Shown: piece by piece, positions 45,326-63,999 of the stretch
Position numbering within the stretch: the stretch's first letter is position 1
Layout of the letters: every line of letters begins with the position of its first letter
Virus record (IMG/VR): IMGVR_UViG_3300019874_000002
Location: 32,001-96,000 of that record
Reading direction: 5' to 3' (one strand)
DNA: 64,000 nucleotides
DNA from: a virus
Taxonomy: Duplodnaviria; Caudoviricetes
The notes under the pieces: model-generated
What the model saw: the letters and a program-made list of their open reading frames with translations, nothing else
What the model was told of the DNA's origin: nothing
Databases searched by the model: none
Position numbers and translations under genes: made by a program

Positions 45326-46729
45326 CTAGTCGTCAAGAACATTGATGAAGATCACATTCTTCCGAGGCGCGTACAGGATCGGCGTCATGTAGATCAGCTG
45401 CATCCAGCGAATTGACGCCGCAAGCGTCGCCAGCGGAATCTTCATCATTGGCGCCAGCTGCCTCACGCTCATTGACTGCAAATTCATTTGCAGCAAATAC
45501 GCGCGCGACATTCCAGGCAGCCACTGATTGACATCAAGAAACACTGTCGTCGCCGCGCCAGTCGGACGTGGAACATCGAGCACAAATTGCTCGGTTCCAG
45601 CCGCGCCACCGACTTTGCTGCGATAGATGCGATACCCTGTCGCAGTATCCGTACCACCGCCATCAGTAATCGTGAGCGTCACGCCATCGCCTGCAGCGAC
45701 AGCAACACCACCAGGCTCTTGCACACCAGCGCTCTCGCCAAAGCGATTGAGTGCAGACACCTTGTATTGATACGTACCAGCATCGGCCGCACCAAAGATT
45801 GAAGCAGCGTTTGCACCGCTCGCAGCGGAACACGTCGGCGCCGTTGGAGCGCGCACGGACGTTGCAGCAGTCGGCGCATTCTTGACGCTGTTCTCTTTGC
45901 CACTGCGCAGAAAGATGTTTCCGCGAAGCGCGATATCCCCAGCGTTCGTTTCCATCAGCTTCGCGCTGTAGCCAATTCTACCATCCGTTTGGCCAAAGCT
46001 TCCGCGCTGACGAGAATAGAACTGCTTGCTCATATCGCTTTGTGCGCGCGGAGCAAGATACAGCGCCGAAGATATCCCGTAGTTTTCGACGACAACGTTG
46101 GTCGCCTCTTCGATTGCGTCCTCCGTGATTGGCCCACCGCGAAGATCAATCACGTTGTTTGCACTTGCAAACGGATCTCGCATGAGCTGCTCGTCAATGC
46201 CGTCGAACGAATCTGGAATGACGCTCGCTTGACCTCTGAATAGCGCGCGCTCAATGCGCATCATCAGCCAGATCGCGCGATTCTGCGTCTCTCGCGCAAT
46301 GATATTGCCGTACGCATTGCGCACCAACGTCGCCGGATGCGTTACCTCGCCTTGCGTGCCGAGGAATTTGATCATTTCCACGCGCCGCTCGTACGCCGCG
46401 TCCTGAACCTGAGGCAATTCACCTTCCTTCGTGAATGCGCCAGACTCACCGCCGTAGCTCGATTGGATCGTGTACTCCTCACTCGTCGAGAACGCAGGCA
46501 GCTTCGGAATGTCCTTCCAAAGCTTCATATGCCCTTGCGAGAAAGTGAGCACGCGGAGCGTCGCCTCGAGTGATTCCACGCGAAGCGCACTACCGCCGTC
46601 ATGGCGCGGACTCTGATTGCCTGCTGAGAGAGCTTTGCGGAGATCGTCCGCACTCATGCCTGCATTTGGGAGCAAACCGAAACCGGTAAGCCCATCGTAG
46701 TCAGACATGCCAACGTAATTGCCTTCCAT
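45326..46729 (-). CDS. Major capsid protein (Herelleviridae-like)
   Basis: KALSAG...GGSALRVESLEATLRVLTF, IERALFRG, VIDLRG, QLAPMMKIPLA; inserted Ig/Fn3-like segment. Confidence 0.92.
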   Translation of the reverse strand: MEGNYVGMSDYDGLTGFGLLPNAGMSADDLRKALSAGNQSPRHDGGSALRVESLEATLRVLTFSQGHMKLWKDIPKLPAFSTSEEYTIQSSYGGESGAFTKEGELPQVQDAAYERRVEMIKFLGTQGEVTHPATLVRNAYGNIIARETQNRAIWLMMRIERALFRGQASVIPDSFDGIDEQLMRDPFASANNVIDLRGGPITEDAIEEATNVVVENYGISSALYLAPRAQSDMSKQFYSRQRGSFGQTDGRIGYSAKLMETNAGDIALRGNIFLRSGKENSVKNAPTAATSVRAPTAPTCSAASGANAASIFGAADAGTYQYKVSALNRFGESAGVQEPGGVAVAAGDGVTLTITDGGGTDTATGYRIYRSKVGGAAGTEQFVLDVPRPTGAATTVFLDVNQWLPGMSRAYLLQMNLQSMSVRQLAPMMKIPLATLAASIRWMQLIYMTPILYAPRKNVIFINVLDD

Positions 46730-46766: not shown

Positions 46767-47779
46767 CTACGAAGCAGAACAGAGCTTCTGCTCCAACTTT
46801 TGGACAACAGCCTTTGGTAGCATTGAGAAATCGTGAGTGTTTTCGAATTTGGTAATTTCGTCCAGAGAAACGCCCTGACTCTTCAAACACATGTCCGTAA
46901 GAGCCTCTTGAATTGCGATAAACTCGACATTCTCCAATGGCGAGCCTAGCTCCGATCCGTCGATACCTGAGGTGTCCCCATTCCGAAATTGCGGTTCGCG
47001 AACATTCGCTTTTCGCAACGTCGAACCTTGCTGATTGGGTACAGGCTGATCGTGAATAGCTTTGACTAGGTCCTCCGTACTGCCTAGCTTCTCCACAATC
47101 ATCACGAGAGCCTTCGCAATCTTTGAATTGAAAGCCTTCTGATTATCACCGAATTCAGTGATCGACTTTCGCATCGACTTCATCAACCGTTTGTCACGCG
47201 AATTGCGTTGACCGGCGGTTAGGTTGTCAATCGATTGGACGAGCTTATCGAGGATTGGCGCAGCATCAAACGCAGCTTCTGCGTTTGGAGTCTCGTCGAT
47301 GAGAGCCTTTCGAATGCTCTCATTACGACGCTTCTTTGTCTGGGACGAAGATTCGCAAGCTGCGAAGCGCCGTGGGATTTACCAAACGGCTTACCTCCCT
47401 TTGCAGGTTGATCAGACGATGATTCACCTCCTTCATCCGATTCGTCATCCCCACCGCCAGCGGATTCCCCATCTCCGCTGTCGTCGTCAGATGACATCGA
47501 GTCGTCGTCATCATTTCCAGCTTTCGCTACATCGTCATCTGACGATGCGTCGTCAGATTTAGCGTACAGCGCTTTCAGTGTTTCTTCCGCTTTCCGCCGA
47601 CTCATCCCGCCCTTCATCAGACCTCTCAACGCCTTCTTCATCGCTTTCGCACTTGATTGAATATTTGTTCCCTCCGTCGCCAAGCCTCCATCGTGTGGAG
47701 CATCTTGGAGAGCATCTCCGCCCTTTTCGAGCGTTTCTAGTGACGCAAGCAACCTGGCCTCTGCTGGTGTTCTCGCCAT
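46767..47779 (-). CDS. Scaffold protein split over two frames (47219-47779 and 46767-47186+)
   Basis: Acidic, rich in K-A/K-S motifs, located before the capsid gene; the downstream frame is open and protein-like from about 47380. Confidence 0.65.
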
Positions 47780-48234: not shown

Positions 48235-48573
48235 TTAGTTAGTAACCAACACGGTCCAGCGCACAGTGCATGGATTTGTTGCAACTGCGTAAACGCCAGC
48301 TGCGCCAGACTCCTTCGACGCATTGATTGTAAAGGTGTTGTTTGCGTTTTGAACCGACGCTAGACGATGAACTGTCGCCACACCTCCAGCGTCTTCAAAA
48401 TTCAATGACTGAACAACATATGACATGATGTCGACACGTCCACCTTTCATCCGAATAGCACGTCCAAGGTCGACGACTGTCGACCCTGTAAACGTGATCA
48501 ATCCAGTAAGATGACTTGATTGATTTCTCTGTTCGCCGACTCGCGGCTTTCCTGTCGCTACTCGTTTAGCCAT
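48235..48573 (-). CDS. Putative head structural protein
   Basis: 112 aa, GGAGG RBS. Confidence 0.6.
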   Translation of the reverse strand: MAKRVATGKPRVGEQRNQSSHLTGLITFTGSTVVDLGRAIRMKGGRVDIMSYVVQSLNFEDAGGVATVHRLASVQNANNTFTINASKESGAAGVYAVATNPCTVRWTVLVTN

Positions 48574-49322
48574 TAAATCCTCCGTTCCTGTTTTTCAATT
48601 ACACGCGCGAGTCGCTCGCAGGTTGCCCACGCATATTGTGGTCGATGCGACTTAATCACTTTGACTGCTTCATCGAATGATAGCTCCATCCGTCTACGCT
48701 CCACACGACCGCTCGCTAGAGCTGCACCTCCACTATGCGCTGGCGATTGACCTCCAGCAGACAGAGCTTTTCTAATATTACTCGCTTCCATTTGCTCGTA
48801 AGAACCAAATGACTTCGCGAGAATACTCCAAGAACATTTAGTGTTCACCGGAACACGCGTAATCGCAACGTCGCGAATCTTTGCCTTTAGTATTTTGTTA
48901 TCGTATCCTCGATCGACAACCTTACCTTCAATACTAAAACCGAGATGTCTAGCAACGCCACTCTTTAGCAGTGATTTAGCAAGCGTCCAAATGCGATCAG
49001 CAGGCTCGTAGTCAACAAGCAAATTACCCTCCGTCCACCAGGACCCCTTCCGTAATTCTGCCATCGACGGCACACCCACAGCATCCGCAGTCCCTTGCTT
49101 GTGGTTATCGTTAAACCAACCGTAGTTCACGAATTCTGTGAAATCCAACCCCTTTGCTAAAACACGCTCGTCCTGCCGGTCCAAATCTTCCGTGGAACAC
49201 GTTCCACCGATTGGGCGTGTTCGCTCTATATCTACTGCGCCTTTGGACAAATCAATTACAACACAGCCTGGTGTCCAAATGATAAAATCGTCTTTACCAT
49301 CTAAGATATCGTTGTCTTTCAT
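48573..49322 (-). CDS. Prohead protease
   Basis: GTCSTEDLDRQDE, GWFNDNH (His), LGFSIEG (Ser), VAITRVPVN. Confidence 0.88.
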   Translation of the reverse strand: MKDNDILDGKDDFIIWTPGCVVIDLSKGAVDIERTRPIGGTCSTEDLDRQDERVLAKGLDFTEFVNYGWFNDNHKQGTADAVGVPSMAELRKGSWWTEGNLLVDYEPADRIWTLAKSLLKSGVARHLGFSIEGKVVDRGYDNKILKAKIRDVAITRVPVNTKCSWSILAKSFGSYEQMEASNIRKALSAGGQSPAHSGGAALASGRVERRRMELSFDEAVKVIKSHRPQYAWATCERLARVIEKQERRI

Positions 49323-51157: not shown

Positions 51158-51596
51158 TGGCTTTCGCCTCTTTCTCCTCTGGCGTAGGCTCTTTACCAGG
51201 ATACGAAAACCCTTCCACACCTGGAACAGGTTTTAGCTTTTGAAACTCGCCAATTCTCAAAGGCTTCGCTCCAAACATACGCTGTCTCTCATCAGCTGTA
51301 AGCGTCTTCGTGTAATAATCGTCCGTCGCGAGCCACGAAGGTGCTTTCACGTTAAACTTCTTGCAGTAGTACCTCAATGCTGGACGAATCTTCTCAACGT
51401 ACTTTCGACGCGCCGCCATATTATCTGCAGTATGGAGCACCATTAGAAACTTTGCATAATGCTTTAGCTGCGCCTCTAATTCATCTTTCGAACGACAAGG
51501 CAACACCTTTTCAGGAGTGTCAACCTCCACACCCTTTGTCCCATCGCCGCGATTGGTCGTCCTGAAGATCACATGGTCTGACTTCTCCTGATTCAC
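51150..51596 (-). CDS. Hypothetical protein
   Basis: 148 aa, coupled on both sides. Confidence 0.65.
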   Translation of the reverse strand: MNQEKSDHVIFRTTNRGDGTKGVEVDTPEKVLPCRSKDELEAQLKHYAKFLMVLHTADNMAARRKYVEKIRPALRYYCKKFNVKAPSWLATDDYYTKTLTADERQRMFGAKPLRIGEFQKLKPVPGVEGFSYPGKEPTPEEKEAKANG

Positions 51597-54500
51597 GACT
51601 TTCCTTCTTTCTTCTTCTCTCCAAACGCAACCATGGATTGCGTCATCAATCCTTGACTCTGAAGCGCCCCCACAACCTTCTGCATGTACTCTTCTGCTTT
51701 ATCATTTGAGAATGGATTACGTCCATCCTCATCGTCCCAAATCGGTTTTAGCTCCTTCTTGATAAACTCGTTCCAATCCCCAGACCTTGTCTTTGTCAAA
51801 CGCTCAAAGAAATGATGCGCCTCTCCTTGAGATATCTCGGAACCTTTAACTTTACGAGTGCTACCCTCTTTGAATGGATTATCGCTAGAATGAAACTCCA
51901 AACCTAGATTTGGCTTCTTACTCGTCACCTTCGACGGCTCGCTACCTTTTGGAATTGGTGAAGCATTCCAGTCTTCGCTATCCTTCTGTTGCTTCTGCGC
52001 AGTCTTCTTCTCAACTGTGCGCTCTGCCGTGCCTACGGTAGCTGTCGCTTGCTTTGGCTTCTCAGCAGCCTTCGGTTGCTCTGCCACAGCCTTTACTTTG
52101 CCTTTAGCTTCCTTCTTTGAGCCAGTCTTTGGCTTCTCGGATGCCAATTCAGGATACTCTTTCTGCAATCCCTCAGCTTGCTTTGCGTAATGGTCAGCTT
52201 TATCATTATCGCCTTTATCACGGTAAACCTGTTCCATCAGGTTAGCCATCTGAAACTTCTGTTTAGAATTTCGCTTATTGCGGTCAAGCTCCCATTGACC
52301 TCTAAACTCTTTTTCGTCAAAATTCTTTGTAAGCGCATGCGCTCCGCGCTTCTTCAGATTGGCTTTGCCTTCTTTGCTCGGCTCGAAATCCTTATCGGTC
52401 AATTGAGCACTCAAACCACCCCTACCTCCTGCAGCTGCAGACTCTTTCCAATCTTCTCCAAGAGCCTCAATCTTTTTAGCATGTTTGGACAGTCCAACAG
52501 AACCAACCGTCTCCTCTGCTTCTTTCTGTCCTGGTGACGCCAAATCGTATGATTTGGCGTTCTCCATAATCGTTTTAATCTGCGCCTCGCTAAACGTCGC
52601 TCCTTGGACACGACGCATTAGATCGTGCACAGACCCTTCTACGTCAAACGTCGCACTCGTCGGCAATTCTTTACCAAGCAACGCCCCAACCATTGCTTGT
52701 TTACCTGCGATCTTCTGCTCCACCATCATGTCATACGTGCCTACAGAGCGGTATGTCTTCTCATGAACATCTTCCGTCTGACCAGTACGCCATTGACGAC
52801 CAATCGCCTGACGCTTTTGCGCTGGATTCCACGGCTCATCAATAAATAATGTTTTGTTCCCACCTTCCTGTAAATTCAGACCAGCGCCTCCAGAAACCGT
52901 GCCTGTCAACAAAACCTTGGAGTGACCTTTATTGTACTTATCTTGAATATAGCCGCGTTCGGAAGGAGCAACGTCTCCAGCAATCGTATCGATTAACGAT
53001 GGATCAATGCCACGCTCTGCGAGTGCTTTCCTAATAATTGGAAAAGCCTTTTGAGGAAATGAGCAAAATGCGACAATACCTTTGGCAGCCTTCCCACCTT
53101 GCCCACTATTTGAAAAATGAGCGATAACATCGTCGCAAAAAGCTTTCAATTTAGGCGTGTGCGCAATACCACCATCAGATTTACGGTATGAGGCATCAAT
53201 CAATGCCGGAGAAATTGACGCTTGACGCTGCAACATCATTTGCATGCCGCCAGCCATGAGCGCTAGAGCACCTTCGTTGTGCTCCTCGTAGCGCTCCCCT
53301 GTTGACGGATTAATCTCTCTCGCTTCGATCTTCGCACGTCGCTCTTTAATCAAACGTTCAATACGAAGCTTGACCATCGTATCGATAACGCCATCCTCCT
53401 TAAAATAGTCATTCTGAGACAAACCGTTCTCAGAGCTAACTACCTTCGACAGTGCCAAATCACCTTCATCCGGCCATTGCTCTTTTGACTCGCTGACACC
53501 TACGCGCTTCGTCAACCCCTTACCCATATCTGCCACAACGTCTGGGTCAGTGATTGATTTATAAAACACGAACGGCTTTAGTCGTTTATTCAAATCGGCA
53601 AGATGCTCAGGATTTGACACTCTATATGCTTGGTCGTCTTCATTCCACGCAACACCAGCCATTCTTCCAGACCAAAGCTCTTGATCGCCTACGCTATCTG
53701 GTGCAAATAGATTCGCGAGATGGTACAAATCCATTGGATCGTTTGGCATTGGCGTAGCTGTCATGCCAAATGCATACTCACGATCTTGCATAACAGCTTT
53801 TGCAATCTCGTGTCTCGTATTGCCAGCTTTCTTATAACCTCCAGAATGCGCTTCGTCGATAAAGACTGCACCTTCCAAATTTTGAAGAATCTTTACCATT
53901 TCATGGTCAGACCCACCGGTACCATCGTTCTCGTCTTCGCTTGCATTTGGATCTGGAACATCTCCAGTCAAGGTCCCTGACGAAATAAAAATGTACCGCG
54001 CTTTCTTCGCCAAATCACTTTGAAGTGCAACCTTCCGCTCCTCGAGAGAAAAACCGCTTAGATTAAGAATCTTGTCCGCGCTCTCCGGTGCAAACTTCGC
54101 AATTACTCCAGGCCACTGCTCCATCAGCGACGGCGGAAGAAACATCACGGCAGGAATGTCTTTACCTTGTGCACGCAATTGCTCCATGAAAGCAATGACG
54201 GTAGGACTCTTTCCCATCCCTGCATCTTGCGCAATCACACCACGCTTCACCGCCATCATCCAATTGATATACTTCTTCTGGTACCCAAATGGCTCCCAAA
54301 CCCCTTTACTCGGATCGTTTGGATCCTTTAGTGTCTTTCCGTTCCAAATACCATCTTTCATCGTCAACGGAACATCAAACGAATCATCTTCTTGCGCAGC
54401 GAGAATTTTTACAATCCGTGCCTGCTCTTTTGCGACGTTTACCAAATGATCGTCCATGATATCGCTCTTACCGGCGACATCGTTCATCTTCATCTTGAAG

Positions 54501-55984
54501 ACATCTGCAAAATGAGGATCCTGCCCAGTATTGTAATCAGTGAACGCTTTGAGAGTCGCTTCTGACGTCTTTTGCAATTTACGTTTCAACGTTGACCGTG
54601 CGGCGCTGTCATTGCTGACGATACCGAGCTTTTGCGCAATCAAATCAAACACACCATCTATCGTCGCATCGGTGTGATCACCTGGAGCGTAATCGTAAGT
54701 GTTGTCAGAAGAGAACGAATTCTGTGCGTCCGTCGCCGTATACACGGCCATCAATTGCGACGCATTCAAACGCTCAAGCTGATTATCTTTCCACAGAGAC
54801 CCTAGATCACGCTTACGAGTCAGAAGCAAACCAGACTCTGGGATAATCGCGCCACGCATCCTGCGCTGCGCCACACCACCCTTAGAACCTCTTTTGATTA
54901 ACCCCATTTGATGCATCGCCACAGTCATCCGCACAGCTAGATCATTTGGGTCGTCGCCCAACATCATATCGGAAGCAAGCGGCGAAAATTCATCGGCCAT
55001 CTGCTCTGCTTTAATGTAGAACGCATTACGATGAATCTCTAATTTCTCTGCGGACGCTGTTGCAGCGGCTTGAACCTTTGGATCCTCGTGGAGTGCTTTC
55101 CTATAGCGCCCCATCAATCCACGAATAACCTCTAGAATGTCTTCTGGAGATTCGACATCTCCATATTGAGGGTCACCCACAAAGAGGTCGGCATTCGTTC
55201 TAAAAAACTCCTCCGTCGCCTCTTCAAATCCAATATTGCGACCTCCAATCTTCACAGAGATATTATGCAAACCTCCAGCCTTCTCCACGTCATTTCTCGT
55301 AATCCCAAACGAGCTTAAAACGTTGTCATAATTATCATGCCACCATTCCATGAAATTATGGTCAGCTTCGCTCAACGCATCGCTATGCAATAACGCGTCG
55401 TGTAGATCAAGCTGGTCATGCGCTGCAAATGGCTGAGGCATGTAATACTGTCGAAAATGCTCTACAACATTATCTGGTGTCGCTTGCTTTGTGAAACTAC
55501 CGTGTGGTCGCTCTCCATACCGGACATTGCCTTTATCATCCCTCCAAAACTTACCGCCACGCGAACCAGCGCGCTCCACATGAACGTAACCGCTCGGTGT
55601 AAGTTTTCGCTCCACAGGCGCGGAGCTAGACATCTTGTGTTTACCTGTTGCAGCTTGCTCGCTCGGATTGCCTCCGTACCGTCCACCAATTGGCGAATTG
55701 GACATTTTCGGCAGCTTTGGCTCTGCTTTGAAAAGCAAACGTCCGTCGCTTGTGACGACAAACGATCCGGCCGCAGACTTTTCGATACCGTCTTCTTCGA
55801 GCACAGCCATTACGTCTGCTTCTAAAGCAGACATCCGAGCACGATACAGCGCGTTCAAATCATCAGATAAAGTTTGCGTGACAGCGTGACGCATTGGCCG
55901 CATTGGAATACGCAACGTAGCTTTGATGAGCAAATCGTCTCCGATTTGCAAACCCTCAAGTAATGCGTCATCGTCAATCGACAT
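51593..55984 (-). CDS. Large SNF2-family helicase/ATPase, probable internal head protein
   Basis: PFGYQ, QDAGMGKS, IDEAH, MTATP, GGAGLNLQ, WNPAQKRQAIGRQWRTGQ. Confidence 0.85.
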   Translation of the reverse strand: MSIDDDALLEGLQIGDDLLIKATLRIPMRPMRHAVTQTLSDDLNALYRARMSALEADVMAVLEEDGIEKSAAGSFVVTSDGRLLFKAEPKLPKMSNSPIGGRYGGNPSEQAATGKHKMSSSAPVERKLTPSGYVHVERAGSRGGKFWRDDKGNVRYGERPHGSFTKQATPDNVVEHFRQYYMPQPFAAHDQLDLHDALLHSDALSEADHNFMEWWHDNYDNVLSSFGITRNDVEKAGGLHNISVKIGGRNIGFEEATEEFFRTNADLFVGDPQYGDVESPEDILEVIRGLMGRYRKALHEDPKVQAAATASAEKLEIHRNAFYIKAEQMADEFSPLASDMMLGDDPNDLAVRMTVAMHQMGLIKRGSKGGVAQRRMRGAIIPESGLLLTRKRDLGSLWKDNQLERLNASQLMAVYTATDAQNSFSSDNTYDYAPGDHTDATIDGVFDLIAQKLGIVSNDSAARSTLKRKLQKTSEATLKAFTDYNTGQDPHFADVFKMKMNDVAGKSDIMDDHLVNVAKEQARIVKILAAQEDDSFDVPLTMKDGIWNGKTLKDPNDPSKGVWEPFGYQKKYINWMMAVKRGVIAQDAGMGKSPTVIAFMEQLRAQGKDIPAVMFLPPSLMEQWPGVIAKFAPESADKILNLSGFSLEERKVALQSDLAKKARYIFISSGTLTGDVPDPNASEDENDGTGGSDHEMVKILQNLEGAVFIDEAHSGGYKKAGNTRHEIAKAVMQDREYAFGMTATPMPNDPMDLYHLANLFAPDSVGDQELWSGRMAGVAWNEDDQAYRVSNPEHLADLNKRLKPFVFYKSITDPDVVADMGKGLTKRVGVSESKEQWPDEGDLALSKVVSSENGLSQNDYFKEDGVIDTMVKLRIERLIKERRAKIEAREINPSTGERYEEHNEGALALMAGGMQMMLQRQASISPALIDASYRKSDGGIAHTPKLKAFCDDVIAHFSNSGQGGKAAKGIVAFCSFPQKAFPIIRKALAERGIDPSLIDTIAGDVAPSERGYIQDKYNKGHSKVLLTGTVSGGAGLNLQEGGNKTLFIDEPWNPAQKRQAIGRQWRTGQTEDVHEKTYRSVGTYDMMVEQKIAGKQAMVGALLGKELPTSATFDVEGSVHDLMRRVQGATFSEAQIKTIMENAKSYDLASPGQKEAEETVGSVGLSKHAKKIEALGEDWKESAAAGGRGGLSAQLTDKDFEPSKEGKANLKKRGAHALTKNFDEKEFRGQWELDRNKRNSKQKFQMANLMEQVYRDKGDNDKADHYAKQAEGLQKEYPELASEKPKTGSKKEAKGKVKAVAEQPKAAEKPKQATATVGTAERTVEKKTAQKQQKDSEDWNASPIPKGSEPSKVTSKKPNLGLEFHSSDNPFKEGSTRKVKGSEISQGEAHHFFERLTKTRSGDWNEFIKKELKPIWDDEDGRNPFSNDKAEEYMQKVVGALQSQGLMTQSMVAFGEKKKEGKS

Positions 55985-55988
55985 TTAT

Positions 55989-57299
55989 CTACCCTTCACC
56001 GTTACCCTGCGTACGGATTGGCTCGTCGTCGCCAATACCAAGATGCCCACTCTTTTCGATGTAGTCAGCGACCTCTTGGTCCGTTCCAGTTTCCCAAATC
56101 ACAAGCTCATTCGTGCCACCCTTCTTAATTGGAGGCTCGTTCCGATTTCCGGAAGTGAGCGGCTTGTGAGGGACAAATGGCTTGATGGGTGATGGTCCGC
56201 GCGGAGGTAGCTTCGCACCTCCACCAGGCAATCCTTTCGCAATCAACGCCTTCCTGCCAGCGAGATACGCGATATGATCACCTGCCTCCAGACGAGTCAT
56301 CTCCGATTTGGAGATCTTGTACCAACCATCTTTCATCTCGTCAACGTTCATACCCATCTGAACCATTTCGCTTTTGCTGATTGGGTATTCCTCTTGGTCC
56401 CCAGCTTCAGGACCGTTGCAGCTCTTGAGCAGTGGCGCAATTGCATCATGCTCCGATACGCCAGAACCAGGACGAGACGGCTCTACTTGACCGTCACCTC
56501 CAGAATGCGGATTGTCATTGTCGTCCACAACAAATTGAGGCCCTAGCCCTTTGTGGAGATCTTCATGCGTCAAGCCGTGCTTACAATGCACGCAATTGGT
56601 AATTGGAGAGTTGGAATCATTTCCAAGCTCAGCCTTAAACAGATCAGATATTGCACTCTTTGTCATGTCGTTTTCTCCTTCAGATTTACTTGTGTATGGC
56701 TGCAGAGCGCCACTCGTTTGACGATGAGCAACAGCCAAATTTTTGTGTACGGCTGCTTGCGAGACGTTTCCGGCGATCCTGTGAAATTCATGTGCGCGTT
56801 CGTGTTCTCCTGCCGCGTCATGATGCAAGAAAGCTTGCACGTGCGTCGGCCGCGATTGGCTCATATTAGCTAATGACGATTTTTGATGAGCCGATTTACC
56901 AGCAGTAACAGCCGCTGCACCGTATCCGCCATCATCTTTTGGCCCAGACCCAGGACCACCCTTCGCAATACTCACCTTTGGTTTCATCTTCGTATGTCCT
57001 TCCTTTCTACGTTGCTTATTCACCGTTGCAGCGGCAATACTTTCACTTGCTCCGCTATCTTTAATATGATTGTACTGCCTCTCATCCTTCGCATTCCACC
57101 CAGCGCCTTTTTTTACATCCGGCGTTTTAGACTTCTTTTCCTCTTCCTTTGCAGCGTGAAACTTTGGATTGACGTCAGCATTATCGTGCATTGGAACCTT
57201 CACAACGCGCGGCATATGCCCAACCGGAGCATCTACAGGCTCCCCAATATGATCGTTCGGACCATTCTTCTTTTTGTCAATCTTAACAGCCATTACCAA
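55989..57299 (-). CDS. Modular low-complexity protein, probable internal head protein
   Basis: KGGPGSGP, His/Ala-rich block, many x-K-S/G/A motifs. Confidence 0.7.
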   Translation of the reverse strand: MVMAVKIDKKKNGPNDHIGEPVDAPVGHMPRVVKVPMHDNADVNPKFHAAKEEEKKSKTPDVKKGAGWNAKDERQYNHIKDSGASESIAAATVNKQRRKEGHTKMKPKVSIAKGGPGSGPKDDGGYGAAAVTAGKSAHQKSSLANMSQSRPTHVQAFLHHDAAGEHERAHEFHRIAGNVSQAAVHKNLAVAHRQTSGALQPYTSKSEGENDMTKSAISDLFKAELGNDSNSPITNCVHCKHGLTHEDLHKGLGPQFVVDDNDNPHSGGDGQVEPSRPGSGVSEHDAIAPLLKSCNGPEAGDQEEYPISKSEMVQMGMNVDEMKDGWYKISKSEMTRLEAGDHIAYLAGRKALIAKGLPGGGAKLPPRGPSPIKPFVPHKPLTSGNRNEPPIKKGGTNELVIWETGTDQEVADYIEKSGHLGIGDDEPIRTQGNGEG

Positions 57300-57303
57300 C
57301 TCC

Positions 57304-59394
57304 TTATTGTGCCACAGGCTGACCTGGCTTTGAAGACTTCACAGGCTTTACTTCTGACGTTCCAGAAGAAGGCTGACCTTCCAGTACCTTCCCGGTGATC
57401 ACATCGAACAGCAACCCAAAGTAATCACCATCTAATCCATGAGCATCACCAAATTCGGCCAAATGTGTACTCATAAACGATACAAACTTCTGTCTCGCAT
57501 CTTCGCCATATTTCTTCTGCATCTGCATAACGATTTTCTGAATCACTGCACGTTGTACATTCAATGCAGAACAAAACTCTGCGACATTTAATGTATGTTT
57601 TGGAGCCTGTGGTTTCGAAGGATCAGGTGCACGCACATCCTTCTGATCTGGTTTTTCCGGATGGTCTGCAGCAATAGGTTCCTGGTCTGCATTTGGAGAT
57701 GGCAAATCAGGATGTGGTAATTTCGTTTCTTCTTTTTTGCCAGCTTGCATTTCTGCAGGATTACCGTTTGGTTGCTGTGACGATTGAGGTTTAGCTCCCT
57801 GCTCTCCTGGATAATTATATCTCACCTGGCCACCACTACCGAGCTTTTTGGAGCTAGCTCCAATGACCTTTGAGCCAACCTTTTTATTACTTGCTTCACG
57901 TTGATCGTCGGACATCTTAGGCAATGCCTTTACCAGCACAGCCTTCCTAAATGGAACAGTCATCCGCTTGCCTCCAATCGATAACGCGACTGAATCGAAA
58001 TTAATGTCGACAGGCTCAAAACGCTCCAATGGCGTTTTGTCTTTCTTTCCGATATATGCAAGCGTTACGTGCGGTGTAAAACCATGAACACTTCCGGACG
58101 TCAGTCCAGCTTGGCGCAACAGCTCCATCAAACTAGAATGCAATCTCGTAATGTCTGGTGAATCAACAGACAAATAAATAACATCCTTACCTTCCGACGA
58201 TTCACTAGCACTGAACCGCCCAACGCCGCTCAATGAAGCCTTGATACCGAGCGCTAGACTTGTAAATTTACGAACAACAGCAGCCGCGGCTTTCTTCCGC
58301 TTCTCGGTCAATCCTTTACCAAGATACGCGAGCGTAATGTGCATCGACTCTGGGGACTCACCGCCGCGGATAGCGATTTTATTTGCAATCTTGTCCGGTA
58401 AGTGCAGCGCGATCATCGTACCGCTGTGCGCTCCGCCTTTAATAATCAGAGTCGGCATCAACTGGTTAGCTTGTGCTAAAATCTTTACGTCTACGTCGTC
58501 ATTTAATAGCTCTAAAGCTTCAACCAACGTAACCCATTTCGCTGCTTCAACCTCTTCACCGTCAACACGAGTGACAACACTCCTAGGTGTCATAACGTAG
58601 TAATCGCAAGTACCGCCGTCATTATGTGTAAACCGCCCAAGTTTTCTATCGATTTCGCACGGTAGTCCTGTTTCTTCTTTTACCTCGCGCAACGCCGTCT
58701 CGACATTATTTTCGTACTGATTTGGATAACCTTTTGGAAACGTCCAATCATACCCACCAAATCCATTAGTAGGTTTAATCAACAAAACCTTCCCATCAGA
58801 ATTCATTACAATCCCACCCCCACAAACTCTCGTCGTGTCTTTATCTAAAACACGATTTACAAATGCGCCCTGCATCAACTGTCTGTAATTACCAGGAACG
58901 CGCTCCACCGTGTCGTCTCCAGACGGCCCCCAAACTCGTGTTGTAGATTCTGGCGCGTCTTCTAATTCTGCGGTCGCATCTCCGTACTGAGGAAGTGGAG
59001 ACTGTCTAGACCCAATCTCTTGATTGAAAACTTCCTGTTCTCGGTCCGCCCTCTCTGCATCAAACTTCGACGTCAATCGTTGCTCTGCCTCTTCCAATTG
59101 CGTACAGAAATCCAATATCGCCACGTCGTCACTATCAAGAGGTTTTGCTGTAAAACCATTACCGTTTAATGCAAAAAGGAACGGCCGATCGTGAGAATAC
59201 AAAACACCTCGGTAGCCTAGCTTCGTACGCTCGACAAATACTCTGTCAATTGGTTTCACTGTCGACAGTTCGCGAACGTCATCTCTAATCACGTCGTAAA
59301 TACCAACCGGCGCTGCCTCCAAATCACCACGAACTGGTTTGGCGTTTACAATCAGTAGTTTTGGATGCACTGAAAGCATCGTGCTATTTTTCAT
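57304..59394 (-). CDS. Nudix hydrolase + 2H phosphoesterase (Acb1/LigT-like) fusion
   Basis: Nudix box PKG...ETALREVKEETGL; two HxT motifs, HITLAY and HVTLAY. Confidence 0.85.
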   Translation of the reverse strand: MKNSTMLSVHPKLLIVNAKPVRGDLEAAPVGIYDVIRDDVRELSTVKPIDRVFVERTKLGYRGVLYSHDRPFLFALNGNGFTAKPLDSDDVAILDFCTQLEEAEQRLTSKFDAERADREQEVFNQEIGSRQSPLPQYGDATAELEDAPESTTRVWGPSGDDTVERVPGNYRQLMQGAFVNRVLDKDTTRVCGGGIVMNSDGKVLLIKPTNGFGGYDWTFPKGYPNQYENNVETALREVKEETGLPCEIDRKLGRFTHNDGGTCDYYVMTPRSVVTRVDGEEVEAAKWVTLVEALELLNDDVDVKILAQANQLMPTLIIKGGAHSGTMIALHLPDKIANKIAIRGGESPESMHITLAYLGKGLTEKRKKAAAAVVRKFTSLALGIKASLSGVGRFSASESSEGKDVIYLSVDSPDITRLHSSLMELLRQAGLTSGSVHGFTPHVTLAYIGKKDKTPLERFEPVDINFDSVALSIGGKRMTVPFRKAVLVKALPKMSDDQREASNKKVGSKVIGASSKKLGSGGQVRYNYPGEQGAKPQSSQQPNGNPAEMQAGKKEETKLPHPDLPSPNADQEPIAADHPEKPDQKDVRAPDPSKPQAPKHTLNVAEFCSALNVQRAVIQKIVMQMQKKYGEDARQKFVSFMSTHLAEFGDAHGLDGDYFGLLFDVITGKVLEGQPSSGTSEVKPVKSSKPGQPVAQ

Positions 59395-62300
59395 TTTCGC
59401 ACACGCTTTCTAATGACGATAGCCTTTGCCACTACAGGAGCGTCCTTGCCAAAGACTTTACGAACTGACGACGCGACGCGCGTCAATAGTCCAGGCTTCT
59501 TTCCTTTCACTGGAGGCGCAGCATCAAATTCTCCTTGAGGTAGTTTCTTGGCAGATTCACGCATATTGTGCTGCGTGTCTATTGCCTGCTTTGCTTCCCT
59601 ATTGCGGCGTTTCTCCTCTTCAGACATATTTGCATTTTTTGCATGCGCGCGGTCCACTGATTCTTGGCGCTCCCTAGCCTTCCGTCGGTCGTCTTCGTAA
59701 AAGTGTTGCTGCTTCTGTGCTTGAGTCATCCCGGCTAGTGGGTCAAACGGCTTGTGCACATAACGAGGTCTTTCCTTTGAAAGCTTCTCCAATGGAGACA
59801 ACTCTCTTGGTTCCTCAGGCTCCTCACGAATTCTTTGATTGTTTCCAATCACAAAATCTGGCGTATCTGCGTACTGCTGTTCCACAGAAGCCGATACGGC
59901 CGGTTCATTCTCCTCGTCGCTACCAATCCGATGGTGCCCAATACGTGTAATCGCTTCACGCTCCACCGCGGCACTGGCATCTGCGCGCGCTTGATTCTTT
60001 GCTTCTCGTTCATGATAGCGTGCAGCGGCTTTGTCCTTTGATTCTTTGTAAAACGCGGCACGATTCTCCAGGTCTTTTTGCGTCTCAACGTACGTAGTTT
60101 TGACCTCGCCACGACGTTTAATACGCTCAGCCTCCAACTCTTTCTTTACTTTTACCTTCGCTTCTTTCACCGCCGTCACAACGGCTTTATGCTCGTCATG
60201 CTCACCAGCAAGCTTTGCAATCTTCCGGTCTAATGAGCCATGCTTCTTTTTGTCGACAGTTTTCTTTTGTGCCTTGAGCGCAGCCATCTTCTCTTTAATC
60301 GTCTTCATCTGGTCACGGTGCGCAGCCTCTGTATAGCTGTGAGTCTCAAGTTGCTTTTGATGTCCACGCAAACGCTCTCTTGCGTCAACAACATGGCGTG
60401 CAACATTTGAACGTTCCGAGTCTTCTGCGCCTTGCTTTCCATAAACAACATCACCATGGTCATTACGGTACCAAATACCGCCACGCGACCCCGGTTGCTT
60501 GACGATATTAATGTGCTTTAGGATATCGCTCAGAGCATCATATGCGTCAATGCACTCTGCAAATGCCTTTGCTAGATCGCTCCCCTTCGCAACCTTCAAA
60601 GCCTTCCGTTGCTCCTGCTCAAACTCCACAATGTGCAAACGATTCTCGTGCTGCCTATACGCAGCATGTTGCCTCGTTTTCCAGGTTGCCAAATCATTAC
60701 TCGTCGGCATATCGCGCACCGCCAAACGCGACATGTACTCTTTAACCATTGGATGCGCCCCACCAAGAGCATTAGCGGCGGCAGTAAATTGAGCTACCGC
60801 TTCTTGGTCTGCACCTTTGGTATTATGCAGTTTAACAGCTGCTTCGTGCAACTGCACAACACCGACTTTTTCATGCCAATTCGTATTACCTTTAGCATCC
60901 GTCACCCACGCACCAACATCTTGCGCGGCCTGCATTGTACCATGCGCTTGTTCATGCACTGGTGCCAGATTAGGAATCTGCTTGAGATTCTGAACTAGCT
61001 TGTAATGCTCATTCAAAACCTCTGCTTTCTGCTGCAGCTGCTTTGGGAGCGTTACATTCTTTATTTGCGCTGGCAGATTCAAATCATTTGCGATGCCAAG
61101 CTTTACAGCCAAATCTCGATTGGAACCTGGTTGCTTAAAAAACGTAATCGCTGGATGCTCGTGAGCACGAACATGTTGAACCTTCGGCTCCGCCAGCTTG
61201 GGCATTTGAGCCACAGGAACGGCCGTCCGATCCTCAATCTCTCGACGATTGAGTTTTGCCACCTTCGACTCGAGACGAAGCCACTTTTCAACCACCAATC
61301 CATCCGGTGTCAAACCGCCTTGTCGCGTCTTCAATCTATTATTTACGTGCTCTAAAGCTGCGGCGTACCACTTCTCCAAATGGTATCCTTGCTTATCAAC
61401 AGAGAGTGTCCCTAGCAGCGCCTTCTTTCCTTTGGGCAGCTCTACAGTGACACCAGCAAGCTTTGTGGCAATTGATGAAACACCATGCTCGCTACCAGTC
61501 CACGGACGGCCCCAATGCAATCCAGCTTTGCCGTACTTCTCTTGATGCCTCGCGCGTTGCTCATTGAACGCGTGCTCTTGTGATTTATCAGGATGCGAGT
61601 CGTCATCGTCCATCCACAAACGCGATTCTAACGCATAACGCATATGTGGCGGTAGATCGGCGATAGCTTCTCGAATAATCTTCTTTGCAATTGGCTCGTA
61701 GTGATGCAGCTCAAAATGCTCCCTCGGAGAAATCATCTTCGGAGCTTTGTACTCCTCCTCCTCGTGGAGATCTTCAAGCGCTGTTGCCCCAAGCTCAATC
61801 GCGGCTTGCTTCGCAAACTGCTCGAGATGGTTCTTAATCGCGTTCTCTGCGCGCAAATCAAAACGGCTGTACTGGCCTTTTGGCTCGTCATTTGGAACGT
61901 ATTTGTTCGCTTGATCGAGGAGCACTGCGACAGCTTCATTAAACATGTCACGCTCGCGATCATACATATAACGCTTAGCAGATGACTCCGCCAACTTTCC
62001 AGCATAACCCTCCCTATGCGTTACCTCATCCATTTCTCTATAGATGTCCGTCGAAGCGAACACACTACCAAACTTGCGAGTCCACCTTCGGATAAAAGGC
62101 GCCCATTCCTTCAACAACTGCTCACGAACGCGTTTGCTCTTATTGTCAGGGTTCCAAATTCCCAATGTAATGAGCGTCGTCAGCGGCCGACCTTCTGTTC
62201 GTGAAAGCTCATGTTGCAATTGCGCAGGAGAATCAAACTTATTCACCGCCCACATTGGAAGCGGACTGATCTCGCGTTTACCTACAACCTCGTCGAATTG

Positions 62301-63101
62301 ACCTTCGCGATCAGCTCGAGCTTTCGCCTGACCAGCTTCCGTCTTGGCGTGACTTGGTTTTAGCGCTCGCAGTGACGCGTCGAGATACGCCGTCGCAATC
62401 ACGAGCGGATCCTCTTCTGCAGTTAAAGGCTCTCCGATTGATGTCCGGTTCTCCGGTAGCCTCTTAGGCACATTGTGGATACCCAACTCTTCAATCGTCG
62501 GTTCAATCTCGTAAACACCGTACGGTCCGTGTTCATGCACCTCACGCACACCACCGAGGGGCCGATCGTGTGTTCCAGTTGCTGGCAGTTCAATCTTGTC
62601 TTTGGTCGGCACGGGCTCACGAGGCTGTGCTTCGACCTTATATTGCGTAATCTTCTTTGGGAGTCCTTCCTCACTACCGCCGTATGCTCTAGCAACGGAT
62701 GAATCCCTAAACTCAAACGAAGTGTACCCTTTGTGTCTTTGAACTGGATCAACAACGACTTTGCCCCTGTCTGTTGTCCGAGTCCGGTACTCAATCAGTA
62801 AACCACGCTTCTGCCAAAACCTGCCGCCCTCTTTGAAACCGTATTCCCCGAACAACTCCCTATTAATTATCTCCCTGATTGCAGCTTGCCCAGTGACTTG
62901 ACCCTTCTCGTCAAGCTCATTTTCATTGGGGTAAACATATTCAACCGTTCCATCCGAGAGCGTGATCTTTGCAATGTATTTGTGCGCCGCACCTTTAACA
63001 GACTTCTCGTCATATCGAACATTGCCATGCTCGTCTAAACGAAACTTAGCACCCCTTGCCCCAGGGCGCTTTACGTTCTCTGCTTTGAAAAGGAGCAGCA
63101 T
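59391..63101 (-). CDS. Large multidomain protein with sigma70-like region
   Basis: REQLLKEWAPFIRRWTRKF...DMFNEAVAVLLDQANKYVP...SRFDLRAENAIKNHL (region 2-like); IIREAIADLPPHMRYALESRL (region 4 start-like); coiled-coil C-terminus. Confidence 0.6.
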   Translation of the reverse strand: MLLLFKAENVKRPGARGAKFRLDEHGNVRYDEKSVKGAAHKYIAKITLSDGTVEYVYPNENELDEKGQVTGQAAIREIINRELFGEYGFKEGGRFWQKRGLLIEYRTRTTDRGKVVVDPVQRHKGYTSFEFRDSSVARAYGGSEEGLPKKITQYKVEAQPREPVPTKDKIELPATGTHDRPLGGVREVHEHGPYGVYEIEPTIEELGIHNVPKRLPENRTSIGEPLTAEEDPLVIATAYLDASLRALKPSHAKTEAGQAKARADREGQFDEVVGKREISPLPMWAVNKFDSPAQLQHELSRTEGRPLTTLITLGIWNPDNKSKRVREQLLKEWAPFIRRWTRKFGSVFASTDIYREMDEVTHREGYAGKLAESSAKRYMYDRERDMFNEAVAVLLDQANKYVPNDEPKGQYSRFDLRAENAIKNHLEQFAKQAAIELGATALEDLHEEEEYKAPKMISPREHFELHHYEPIAKKIIREAIADLPPHMRYALESRLWMDDDDSHPDKSQEHAFNEQRARHQEKYGKAGLHWGRPWTGSEHGVSSIATKLAGVTVELPKGKKALLGTLSVDKQGYHLEKWYAAALEHVNNRLKTRQGGLTPDGLVVEKWLRLESKVAKLNRREIEDRTAVPVAQMPKLAEPKVQHVRAHEHPAITFFKQPGSNRDLAVKLGIANDLNLPAQIKNVTLPKQLQQKAEVLNEHYKLVQNLKQIPNLAPVHEQAHGTMQAAQDVGAWVTDAKGNTNWHEKVGVVQLHEAAVKLHNTKGADQEAVAQFTAAANALGGAHPMVKEYMSRLAVRDMPTSNDLATWKTRQHAAYRQHENRLHIVEFEQEQRKALKVAKGSDLAKAFAECIDAYDALSDILKHINIVKQPGSRGGIWYRNDHGDVVYGKQGAEDSERSNVARHVVDARERLRGHQKQLETHSYTEAAHRDQMKTIKEKMAALKAQKKTVDKKKHGSLDRKIAKLAGEHDEHKAVVTAVKEAKVKVKKELEAERIKRRGEVKTTYVETQKDLENRAAFYKESKDKAAARYHEREAKNQARADASAAVEREAITRIGHHRIGSDEENEPAVSASVEQQYADTPDFVIGNNQRIREEPEEPRELSPLEKLSKERPRYVHKPFDPLAGMTQAQKQQHFYEDDRRKARERQESVDRAHAKNANMSEEEKRRNREAKQAIDTQHNMRESAKKLPQGEFDAAPPVKGKKPGLLTRVASSVRKVFGKDAPVVAKAIVIRKRVRK

Positions 63102-63102
63102 G

Positions 63103-63999
63103 TTAATTCAAATCAATCTCAAAAAAGTCCATATCAATTGATTTCTTGACACTGCCCAATTGATCATGGTGTGCAGACACAATATTTTTCGCACCTGACA
63201 GTCCGTCCGCTTCACCGAGCTTTTGGAACGTTTGACCTCCCCCAGGTTTATAGCTCACAGATGCACGATTAACGACCTTATCGTGACTGATCGAGTACAT
63301 CCCATGAGTCGCAATACCTGCGTGATAATCAGTTGCAGGTGACTTCATCGTTCGTTTGAAACTGACAGTACCGTGAAATGGTTTGGGGCCAGAACCAGAA
63401 CCGCCTTTATACAAATCGTTATCTCTCACAGATGAATGCACGCTGGACTCCCAATCGTTTTGCTTCAGGAAACGAATGTTGTCGTCCTCTTCGTGAGATT
63501 CGTCTTGAGGTTTTGAACCTCGCGCCATTGCACCAAGCTTTTTACCAGCATCTTTCGCCGTCGGAGATGGCCCGTCTCCAGCATTGCCAAAACGGTTTGC
63601 GTACGGTTGCTCTGGAGGCTGTTCCTCGTCACCACCTTCATCACCACCAGGAGCGCCCATTCCAGGCGGCATTCCGCCAGCACCTCCGCCTTGCTGTTCT
63701 GCCATTTCCTTCTGCATGAGATACTGAAGGTAAACAGGATTGGCGATCACATCACCATGCTTCACTGGACCGACATCATCCAATGCGCGCAGCTCATTGA
63801 TAGTGACGTGCGTTTGACCTTGCTTCTGGCGCAGCTCTGCAGCTTGTTCCTCACTCTTCGCATCGAGACCTACGAGCACAAACTCAAAATCCTCATCGAT
63901 ACGGTCAACGATGTTCCGATTGATGAAGGTTTCAAAGAAGCGAAGGAGAGGCTTTAATCCTCTGTCCTTTGAAAGCTTCTGCTGAGCTTCGTTATTGCC
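63103..63999 (-). CDS. Portal protein, C-terminal part (5' end outside the window)
   Basis: Frame is open to the window edge: SKDRGLKPLLRFFETFINRNIV...FVLVGLD...TINELRA...GDVIANP, matching Herelleviridae-type portals. Confidence 0.85.
   Translation of the reverse strand, partial: GNNEAQQKLSKDRGLKPLLRFFETFINRNIVDRIDEDFEFVLVGLDAKSEEQAAELRQKQGQTHVTINELRALDDVGPVKHGDVIANPVYLQYLMQKEMAEQQGGGAGGMPPGMGAPGGDEGGDEEQPPEQPYANRFGNAGDGPSPTAKDAGKKLGAMARGSKPQDESHEEDDNIRFLKQNDWESSVHSSVRDNDLYKGGSGSGPKPFHGTVSFKRTMKSPATDYHAGIATHGMYSISHDKVVNRASVSYKPGGGQTFQKLGEADGLSGAKNIVSAHHDQLGSVKKSIDMDFFEIDLN

Follow-up and report, generated by a model that had tools for sequence, protein, structure and literature searches.

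Acb1 and Apyc1, phage enzymes known to degrade immune signals, are small and are made after infection has started. Among the 2H and Nudix enzymes that phages are predicted to pack into their heads, none has, to our knowledge, been assayed so far. Iyer, Burroughs, Anand, de Souza, and Aravind found 2H domains in polyvalent proteins and in MuF/portal fusions and proposed that they either work as RNases or break down nucleotides involved in defence (2017, PMC5512222). Later, 2H-MuF/portal fusions were suggested to counter oligonucleotide signalling, and Nudix-cRec fusions were described (Iyer et al. 2022, PMC9503650). That head-packaged 2H and Nudix enzymes counteract signalling was hence already predicted in these two papers and is not a new idea. 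Here we analyze a phage gene that codes for both enzymes in a single polypeptide, the Nudix-2H protein (P0001). It is located in a 64,000-nucleotide stretch of DNA (the window), i.e., bases 32001–96000 of the 118,719-base IMG/VR record IMGVR_UViG_3300019874_000002, which CheckV rates as complete. The initial annotation of the window had described the gene as a Nudix hydrolase fused to a 2H phosphoesterase and had suggested a virion-delivered module against nucleotide second messengers, with the 2H phosphoesterase Acb1 of phage T4 as the known example. With confidence evenly balanced, we favour the reading that the Nudix-2H protein is a modular capsid cargo of the polyvalent type, most likely directed against host nucleotide-derived alarm or immune signals.

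Two intact enzymatic domains in the head-morphogenesis cluster

The Nudix-2H gene is one unbroken open reading frame (ORF; 57304–59394, minus strand) with an ATG start and 696 codons for amino acids. Its ATG and the upstream gene's stop share 4 bases, and the downstream gene begins 5 bases past its own stop; we therefore conclude that it is part of a tightly coupled operon. Almost all genes of the 118.7-kb genome lie on the minus strand. Along this strand, the order is portal, a 1236-residue protein, Nudix-2H, a 436-residue protein, a 1463-residue SNF2 protein, proteins of 148, 338, and 293 residues, the prohead protease, four small genes, and the major capsid protein. The gene thus sits between the portal gene and the prohead protease and capsid genes, i.e., in the head-morphogenesis cluster. 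The initial annotation had placed it inside the head operon, and the PHROG matches of the portal upstream and of the protease and capsid proteins downstream bear this out. Moreover, it codes for the sole Nudix domain and the sole 2H domain of the complete genome.

Both domains were identified with confidence. Pfam NUDIX matched residues 193–305 with an E value of 8.4e-16 (58.6 bits, cut-off 21.1). The Nudix box, G222-x5-E228-x7-R236-E237-V-K-E240-E241-T-G243-L244, fits the consensus exactly, and R236, E237, E240, and E241 are invariant in 19 of 19 full-length homologues. The Pfam models 2_5_RNA_ligase2 and LigT_PEase matched residues 346–449 (E 3.6e-13, 50.3 bits, cut-off 27). In this 2H domain, H352, T354, H442, and T444 of the two HxT motifs are likewise invariant in all 19 full-length homologues, and in a wider set of 73 diverse 2H homologues, neither the two catalytic histidines nor T354 vary. 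The canonical Nudix box and the paired HxT motifs noted at the outset were hence confirmed, with slightly shifted domain borders, i.e., 58459–58827 instead of about 58520–58830 for the Nudix domain and 57949–58422 instead of about 57960–58420 for the 2H domain. PHROGs returned Nudix- and 2H-type families, and in addition a 'head maturation protease' model on the 2H region and a 'portal protein' model on the Nudix region.

We obtained a full-length structure as an AlphaFold2 model from an alignment of 45 relatives. It contains four confident bodies (predicted local distance difference test, pLDDT, >90 in the domains) joined by low-confidence linkers, with a predicted template modelling (pTM) score of 0.36, and the domains appear in the model as separate beads on a string. 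A fixed interface between Nudix and 2H is unsupported because the pTM is only 0.36. We also considered a composite Nudix-2H active site, which was not supported as the model lacks confident packing of the two domains.

The 2H domain is LigT-like

The 2H domain modelled alone reached a pLDDT of 92.6. VIA-align gave the highest Z scores for the 2',3'-cyclic phosphodiesterase (CPDase) of D. radiodurans (5h7e, 17.7), Thermus TT0787 (17.0), and E. coli LigT (15.5). AKAP18 and human Usb1 (14.1–14.7) and the 2'-5' phosphodiesterases of rotavirus and coronavirus (13.4–14.1) followed, with the phosphodiesterase of phage BCSR5 (11.2), Acb1 (10.7), and the penguinpox cyclic GMP-AMP (cGAMP) phosphodiesterase (10.2) at lower values. 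The Foldseek ranking agreed with VIA, its leading matches being 5h7e, 1iuh, 1vdx, and 5ldm. When a profile of 20 homologues was run against the PDB, 5h7e was found with E 6e-8 and an Acb1 entry with E 0.14. On the Pfam Acb1 model PF23474 the domain scored 16.3 bits, below the cut-off of 27, versus 53 bits on PF13563. The ThpR equivalog TIGR02258 matched with E 3e-11, i.e., 43.4 bits against an unmet cut-off of 65.7. From the concordant Foldseek, VIA, and profile orders and from the missed cut-offs of PF23474 and TIGR02258 we conclude that the 2H domain is LigT-like and of a phage-specific subfamily; it belongs neither to the Acb1 family nor to the ThpR equivalogs.

The link to Acb1 proposed in the initial annotation did not hold, and the comparison of Acb1 and LigT structures that it had called for placed the domain on the LigT side, with Acb1 distant. 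In the strict sense of this proposal, the 2H domain would cut 3'3'-cGAMP and related signals of CBASS (antiphage signalling that is based on cyclic oligonucleotides), as Acb1 of T4 does, with the Nudix domain as an accessory. The shared superfamily with its catalytic HxT pair would fit such an anti-CBASS nuclease, as would the distant but real structure matches to Acb1 (7t26, Foldseek E 3.8e-5) and to the BCSR5 phosphodiesterase, and a weak contact with the Pfam Acb1 model in 5 of the 73 2H homologues. However, Acb1 ranks below LigT, AKAP18, Usb1, the viral 2-5A phosphodiesterases, and the plant Appr>p enzyme in the structure comparison, PF23474 is not listed at E 0.001 or better, and the profile search clearly preferred the D. 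radiodurans enzyme. We hence regard an Acb1-like nuclease as very unlikely.

Relatives of the Nudix domain point to dinucleoside polyphosphates as candidate substrates

In sequence searches with phmmer, the nearest relative of the Nudix domain was Thermus Ndx1, a diadenosine hexaphosphate (Ap6A) hydrolase (E 7e-8), followed by Aquifex and animal diadenosine tetraphosphate (Ap4A) hydrolases. Dcp2, g5R, and RppH were more remote in sequence than these diadenosine polyphosphate (ApnA) hydrolases. Structure comparison also found Thermus Ndx1 first (Z 20.1, root mean square deviation 1.8 Å, 122 aligned residues, 31% identity) and then the M. tuberculosis diadenosine polyphosphatase Rv2985 (Z 19.8, 23% identity). 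Since its nearest neighbours are ApnA hydrolases, the sequence points to a position in the dinucleoside-polyphosphate branch (Ndx1/Rv2985-like), with dinucleoside polyphosphates (NpnN) or 5'-end-type compounds as candidate substrates. Of the enzyme types first considered for this domain, it groups with hydrolases of dinucleoside polyphosphates and not with ADP-ribose or NAD enzymes.

A conserved tyrosine lies 21–22 residues past the Nudix box, after an inserted HNDGG loop. In ApnA hydrolases, a marker tyrosine is reportedly found about 16–18 residues after the box, an observation ascribed to Dunn et al. in 1999. Tandem arrangements of the same Nudix subfamily also exist: a metagenomic protein of 1905 residues (P0049) has five Nudix domains in a row, and P0137 (559 residues) has two, which is unusual for a domain that mostly occurs singly. 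A weak PADLOC match of the Nudix domain to the candidate system PDC-S07 (E 2e-7) was judged uninformative.

RNA ends would be another target for a Nudix-2H pair. The Nudix domain could act as an RppH/Dcp2-like decapper on 5' pyrophosphates or NAD/Np4N caps and expose host transcripts to decay, and the 2H domain as a 2',3'-cyclic phosphodiesterase on ends made by host anticodon nucleases or toxins. Host shut-off and/or RNA healing would result, whether or not the protein is injected. The best 2H matches are in fact RNA 2',3'-cyclic phosphodiesterases (5h7e, LigT, TIGR02258), RppH models (E about 1e-6), Dcp2, and g5R are among the further matches of the Nudix domain, and there are 2H relatives with ligase-like fusions, i.e., P0040 with RNA_lig_T4_1 and P0061 with DNA_ligase_A_M. 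However, the strongest Nudix neighbours are ApnA hydrolases and not RppH, the 2H domain stays under the ThpR equivalog cut-off, and 2H domains of the polyvalent type are reported never to associate with RNA ligases (PMC5512222). Moreover, the genome has no model matches for Rnl1, Rnl2-type, RtcB, or Tpt1/KptA enzymes. In the complete genome, PF09414, PF01139, and PF01885 had no match, and PF13671 (polynucleotide-kinase type) gave just sub-threshold P-loop matches. PF09511 (Rnl1) was not matched either, a weak negative because this model matched none of the control genomes. RNA end repair, an alternative role already named in the initial annotation, is thus weakened by the lack of an RNA ligase, a polynucleotide kinase, and Tpt1 in the complete genome. 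As host ligases exist, the missing partners lower the RNA-end explanation but do not remove it, and we consider it possible, if rather unlikely.

2H domains of the same subfamily are fused to capsid parts

The 2H subfamily is large, with 1,858 cluster representatives at E <1e-10. In the 150 best matches listed, the position of the domain varies, and protein lengths range from 170 to 5,304 residues. Prohead protease fusions were found in 17 of 73 sampled 2H homologues (XkdF-type in 14, S78 in 3), and other fusions in this sample involve a Mu-type protease, EncFtn-like, InPase, and ART-PolyVal domains. P0124 is a further 2H-protease fusion, P0039 (687 residues) carries 2H on the C-terminus of a portal protein, and P0043 (1052 residues) carries it on the N-terminus of an HK97-type major capsid protein. 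Judged from these architectures, a 2H domain fused to a shell protein or portal would of necessity lie inside the particle.

Two proteins of about 531 residues (P0028, P0030) have 2H fused to an EncFtn-like (encapsulated ferritin) domain. Encapsulated ferritin is a cargo type of encapsulins, whose HK97 fold is also that of phage capsids.

Cultured actinophages carry the same 2H type between their portal and capsid genes. In Arthrobacter phage Kovu, gp20 is a 2H-protease fusion; in Rofo, the 2H domain lies inside the 'head maturation protease' gp16; and in Gordonia phage GMA6, the 2H protein Orf12 follows the portal-MuF fusion Orf11. Kovu gp20, GMA6 Orf12, and Rofo gp16 are of the same subfamily, with 28–35% identity to the phage 2H domain, and GMA6 is one of its top two matches in BFVD (TMq 0.84–0.86). 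They differ from the Nudix-2H protein in that the 2H domain stands alone or with a protease domain, and in none of them with a Nudix or the N-terminal domain. Such proteins are usually annotated as 'RNA ligase' or 'capsid maturation protease', and the actinophage genome papers make no mention of 2H proteins in the virion.

Among cultured phages, the Felix O1-like Yersinia phage fHe-Yen8-01 carries the nearest Nudix domain, in gp131, with 35% identity over 118 residues. Unlike the Nudix-2H fusion, this protein of 272 residues has a Nudix domain alone. The related Nudix genes in Burkholderia phage BCSR5 and fHe-Yen8-01 have no 2H gene within 4–5 kb (4 kb for the latter). In fHe-Yen8-01 (L017, record positions 77810–85555), gp131 is encoded beside a 2146-residue ADP-ribosyltransferase toxin. 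This toxin and two small proteins, including the Nudix protein, are all annotated as particle associated and form a cargo-like cluster.

Modules move between neighbouring head genes

The Nudix-2H family has about 20 full-length members, all metagenomic, with 36–62% overall identity in the multiple alignment. In 50,697 GenBank phage records, none covered at least 80% of the protein, and a megablast search of 19 kb against these records gave zero matches. A scan of 185,579 species genomes found no relatives, which leaves the family without a prophage or host clue. Two relatives in IMG/VR (L002, L003) keep the entire gene order. In more distant ones (L004–L006), an N-domain-2H-tail protein without Nudix directly follows the portal gene.

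The N-domain is common to all relatives, including those without Nudix or without 2H, i.e., it is kept in the 19 full-length homologues and present in L004–L006, P0045, P0046, P0048, and P0053. The enzymatic domains vary on it: P0048 consists of N-domain and Nudix only, P0046 of N-domain and 2H only, and in P0045 Nudix and 2H are 760 residues apart. Relatives have also gained a GNAT domain or tails with an HEELHG motif, or have lost Nudix or 2H. As far as these alignments tell, Nudix and 2H are separable and come and go independently on the N-domain. The C-terminal region 485–696 occurs as a separate protein of about 250 residues in other phages (P0047, P0051, P0052, P0056, P0058, P0059).

When longer proteins were searched, both Nudix and 2H, in either order, were also found in at least seven further giant proteins of other lineages. 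In P0181 and P0185, for which our models placed both domains, 2H comes first, and P0181 also contains MuF. Because the pairing recurs in these proteins, it hints at cooperation of the two domains.

A tag of about 20 residues, PG[SA]RGGK[FW]..D..G.V.YG, occurs at 63003–63077 and 60432–60503 in the 1236-residue protein and at 55505–55582 in the SNF2 protein (all minus strand). Nudix-2H homologues with other tails have the canonical tag at the exact place of the degenerate GSGGQVRYNYPGE in the Nudix-2H protein, and within these alternative tails lies a segment with homology to the C-terminus of this phage's SNF2 protein. In P0048, the tag and another module replace the 2H domain at the K319 linker point, i.e., the linker is a module boundary. 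The tag is common to Nudix-2H homologues and to the 1236-residue and SNF2 proteins, and the tail segment to Nudix-2H homologues and the SNF2 protein; modules thus move between genes of the cassette, the hallmark of polyvalent proteins (PMC5512222). The tag may be a loading or binding signal.

Apart from this, the tag is found in two otherwise unrelated large proteins and, in other phages, marks module starts in homologues of the Nudix-2H and 436-residue proteins. The first ~445 residues of the SNF2 protein are a conserved protein of the head module and form a separate gene for ~470 residues in L005 (13700–15109) and L006 (5751–7166). In this clade, the helicase has been fused onto a head gene, a situation reminiscent of DarB, the helicase packaged in the head of phage P1.

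Virion delivery, as first suggested, is a reasonable inference from the 2H fusions to portal, capsid, and protease proteins, from the annotation of fHe-Yen8-01 gp131, and from the modules and tag common to neighbouring genes; we consider it likely that the Nudix-2H protein is delivered with the virion. Alternatively, the protein would never leave the producing cell and would have a late or assembly-only role, e.g., as a scaffold-like morphogenetic protein that cleans nucleotides locally and is then degraded or left behind. Databases label related proteins as capsid morphogenesis or maturation proteins, the long helix of the N-domain and the disordered tail are scaffolding-like, and ejection of the Nudix-2H protein is inferred rather than directly evidenced. 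However, intact catalytic residues of both domains are kept in distant relatives, which argues for enzymatic use. Moreover, the portal and capsid fusions place 2H in the shell, from where a folded 20-kDa domain would hardly exit except via the portal, and cargo-like neighbours such as the SNF2 helicase protein are in keeping with what is seen for injected proteins. A protein that is never delivered therefore appears improbable to us.

Candidate sites for proteolytic processing

The motif [LIVMF]-x-K-[AGS], in the following Phi-x-K/[AGS] with a slash for the putative cut, is enriched in several proteins of the head cluster (all minus strand). We counted 11 copies versus 2.1 expected in the 436-residue protein (55989–57299), 9 versus 1.1 in the protease (48573–49322), and 5 versus 0.8 and 6 versus 0.9 in two acidic scaffold-like proteins of 186 (47219–47779) and 139 residues (46767–47186), numbers that 0 of 300 shuffles reached. 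We therefore treat the motif as a candidate prohead-protease site. In the Nudix-2H protein, three of five copies are found at the edges of the 2H domain, i.e., LIIK/GG (316–321), FRK/A (483–486), and LVK/A (488–491). K319 of the first site is invariant although the linker around it is poorly modelled, and cleavage into separate enzymes is plausible, if unproven.

Residues 182–211 in the C-terminal part of the prohead protease (48690–48779, minus strand) copy residues 29–58 of the N-arm of the capsid protein (46556–46645, minus strand), with 16 of 30 positions identical. Both segments begin with [IL]RK/ALSAG, which looks like a common maturation site joined to a capsid-binding segment.

Domain layout and neighbouring genes

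The features of the Nudix-2H protein and its neighbours are collected in Table 1. Across the 45 relatives, conservation reaches at least 90% at five positions (R525, Y526, P529, E606, and Y658), and three of them (R525, Y526, P529) lie within the stretch 483–531, which is predicted to be disordered. This stretch is an insertion hot-spot for additional domains in homologues. The proline-rich linker 532–600 is also predicted to be disordered, yet its sequence is kept in a subgroup (consensus LPHPDL..P.Q.PIAAEHPEKP). The N-domain and the tail had no credible Pfam match at E values up to 5, and residues 1–180 and 590–680 gave just TM <0.45 to unrelated families in the ESM Atlas.

Five neighbouring proteins likewise had no credible Pfam match at E up to 5, and PHROGs and NCBIfam were without a match for the proteins of 148, 338, and 293 residues. 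A PADLOC Csm3-like match in the 1236-residue protein (E 3e-4) was judged uninformative.

Table 1. Positions of the Nudix-2H protein, its parts, and neighbouring head-cluster genes in the window
Feature	Position	Strand	Remarks
Whole ORF: N-domain, Nudix, 2H, disordered tail, helical C-domain	57304..59394	-	696 residues
N-domain, residues 12-130, beta-rich part and 39-residue helix	59005..59361	-	pLDDT >90
Nudix domain, residues 190-312	58459..58827	-	Pfam NUDIX at residues 193-305
Nudix box GX5EX7REUXEEXGU, residues 222-244	58663..58731	-	read from the translation
Nudix-2H linker, residues 313-324, MPTLIIK/GGAHS	58423..58458	-	pLDDT <50 at 319-323; K319 invariant
2H domain, residues 325-482, LigT/ThpR-like	57949..58422	-	Pfam match at residues 346-449
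First HxT motif, H352-I-T354	58333..58341	-	translation; HITL at 352-355
Second HxT motif, H442-V-T444	58063..58071	-	translation; HVTL at 442-445
Conserved post-2H stretch, residues 483-531, with FRK/A, LVK/A, KALPKMSD, and degenerate tag GSGGQVRYNYPGE	57802..57948	-	alignment blocks, tag comparison
Proline-rich low-complexity linker, residues 532-600	57595..57801	-	pLDDT 36-53
C-terminal helical domain, residues 601-668	57391..57594	-	pLDDT 89-97
Portal gene	63103..63999	-	C-terminal part in the window, 683 residues in the genome; PHROG portal families E 1e-14
1236-residue protein, no known family	59391..63101	-	two canonical tag copies
436-residue protein	55989..57299	-	rich in Phi-x-K/[AGS] motifs
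1463-residue SNF2 helicase protein	51593..55984	-	head-module N-part, tag, SNF2, C-terminal segment homologous to tails of Nudix-2H homologues
Prohead protease	48573..49322	-	PHROG 1028, E 7e-44
Major capsid protein	45326..46729	-	PHROG 752, E 5e-82; ~36% identity to capsid proteins of SPO1-like myoviruses

Discussion

For a Nudix-2H protein that acts as capsid cargo, we propose the following course. The protein would be made late, along with the head proteins, and would enter the procapsid; the handles for this are probably the family-wide N-domain and/or the tail with its tag-like VRY-x-YP stretch and the helical C-domain. The prohead protease may cut the conserved Lys-Gly/Ala linkers that flank 2H. 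With the DNA, the cargo would then exit from the head, and the next host would contain two active hydrolases ahead of any phage gene expression. There, the Nudix domain would split the pyrophosphate link in an NDP-X or NpnN compound or at an RNA 5' end, and the metal-independent 2H domain would open a 2',3'-cyclic phosphate or cut a 2'-5' or 3'-5' link in a small (oligo)nucleotide. The anti-signalling role is our best single guess for the outcome and is unproven.

Several observations weigh against a cargo directed at host signals. By structure and profile, the 2H domain is nearest to RNA 2',3'-cyclic phosphodiesterases and not to known signal-degrading enzymes. For the Nudix domain, no NCBIfam equivalog cut-off was reached, with the MutT1, Deinococcus Nudix, RppH, and NudE models all far below; NF052459, for example, gave 37 bits versus a cut-off of 475. 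The Phi-x-K/[AGS] motif is not above chance in the Nudix-2H protein (5 copies versus 3.1 expected, a number reached by 60 of 300 shuffles), and its tag copy is degenerate. Furthermore, the phage is uncultivated, and 'particle associated' for fHe-Yen8-01 gp131 is the depositors' annotation, the basis of which is unchecked.

In a variant of the cargo reading, the protein would be a polyprotein that the prohead protease cuts at the invariant Lys-Gly/Ala linkers, yielding free Nudix and 2H enzymes in the capsid, which after ejection would act in sequence on one immune signal. The 2H domain would open a cyclic phosphate, a cyclic (oligo)nucleotide, or an ADP-ribose-derived ring, and the Nudix domain would split the pyrophosphate-bearing product, or the two would act in reverse order. 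MutT1, in which a Nudix domain is paired with a second, histidine phosphoesterase domain acting on the Nudix product, is a precedent for such two-step action. We consider this variant quite unlikely; if true, Nudix and 2H would recur in unrelated head proteins because the two are in fact biochemically coupled.

If an enzyme pair indeed arrived with the DNA, it would act before a host signal builds up, a different timing strategy from that of enzymes made after infection. The family offers compact, well-modelled domains of about 125 and 160 residues and a natural series of proteins with one, the other, or both enzymes, and single modules are carried by the cultured phages Kovu, GMA6, and fHe-Yen8-01. 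Moreover, the cassette illustrates how cargo modules and a short tag travel from one head gene to its neighbours.

Comparison with known systems

With Acb1 (T4 gp57B family; 7t26, 7t27), the phage 2H domain shares the superfamily, the metal-independent two-histidine chemistry, and the phage origin. Acb1 is, in contrast, of a distant branch (TMq 0.43–0.47) and a small, stand-alone early protein, not a fusion in the head module. LigT/ThpR CPDases (5h7e, 5ldm, 1iuh) are the best match in fold and profile (TM ~0.65), and both HxT motifs and the GxGxF strand are common to them and the phage domain. They have only ~20% identity with it, however, and stand alone, whereas the phage 2H is embedded in a head protein and has its own signature, GVGRFSAS..S.G.DV.Y.SVD, and a short insertion. 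Ndx1 (1vc8), Rv2985/MutT1 (9cxx), and the Aquifex Ap4A hydrolase (3i7u) are the top matches of the phage Nudix domain in sequence and structure. Unlike these ApnA hydrolases, the phage domain carries a family-specific invariant loop, HNDGGxC[DE]Y.

With polyvalent and other head-packaged effectors, the Nudix-2H protein shares at least two enzymatic domains per polypeptide, a gene beside portal and head genes, and module shuffling, and both 2H and Nudix are listed there in fusions with MuF, portal, or protease, with a predicted role as injected agents against nucleotide signals. It differs from these effectors in that it lacks a MuF, portal, or protease part, and no described family was matched by its N-domain, its tag-like stretch, or its C-domain. 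The layout N-domain-Nudix-2H-tag-like tail-C-domain was not found in PMC5512222, PMC9503650, or the GenBank phage records searched. On every feature accessible to the analysis, the Nudix-2H protein fits the polyvalent class.

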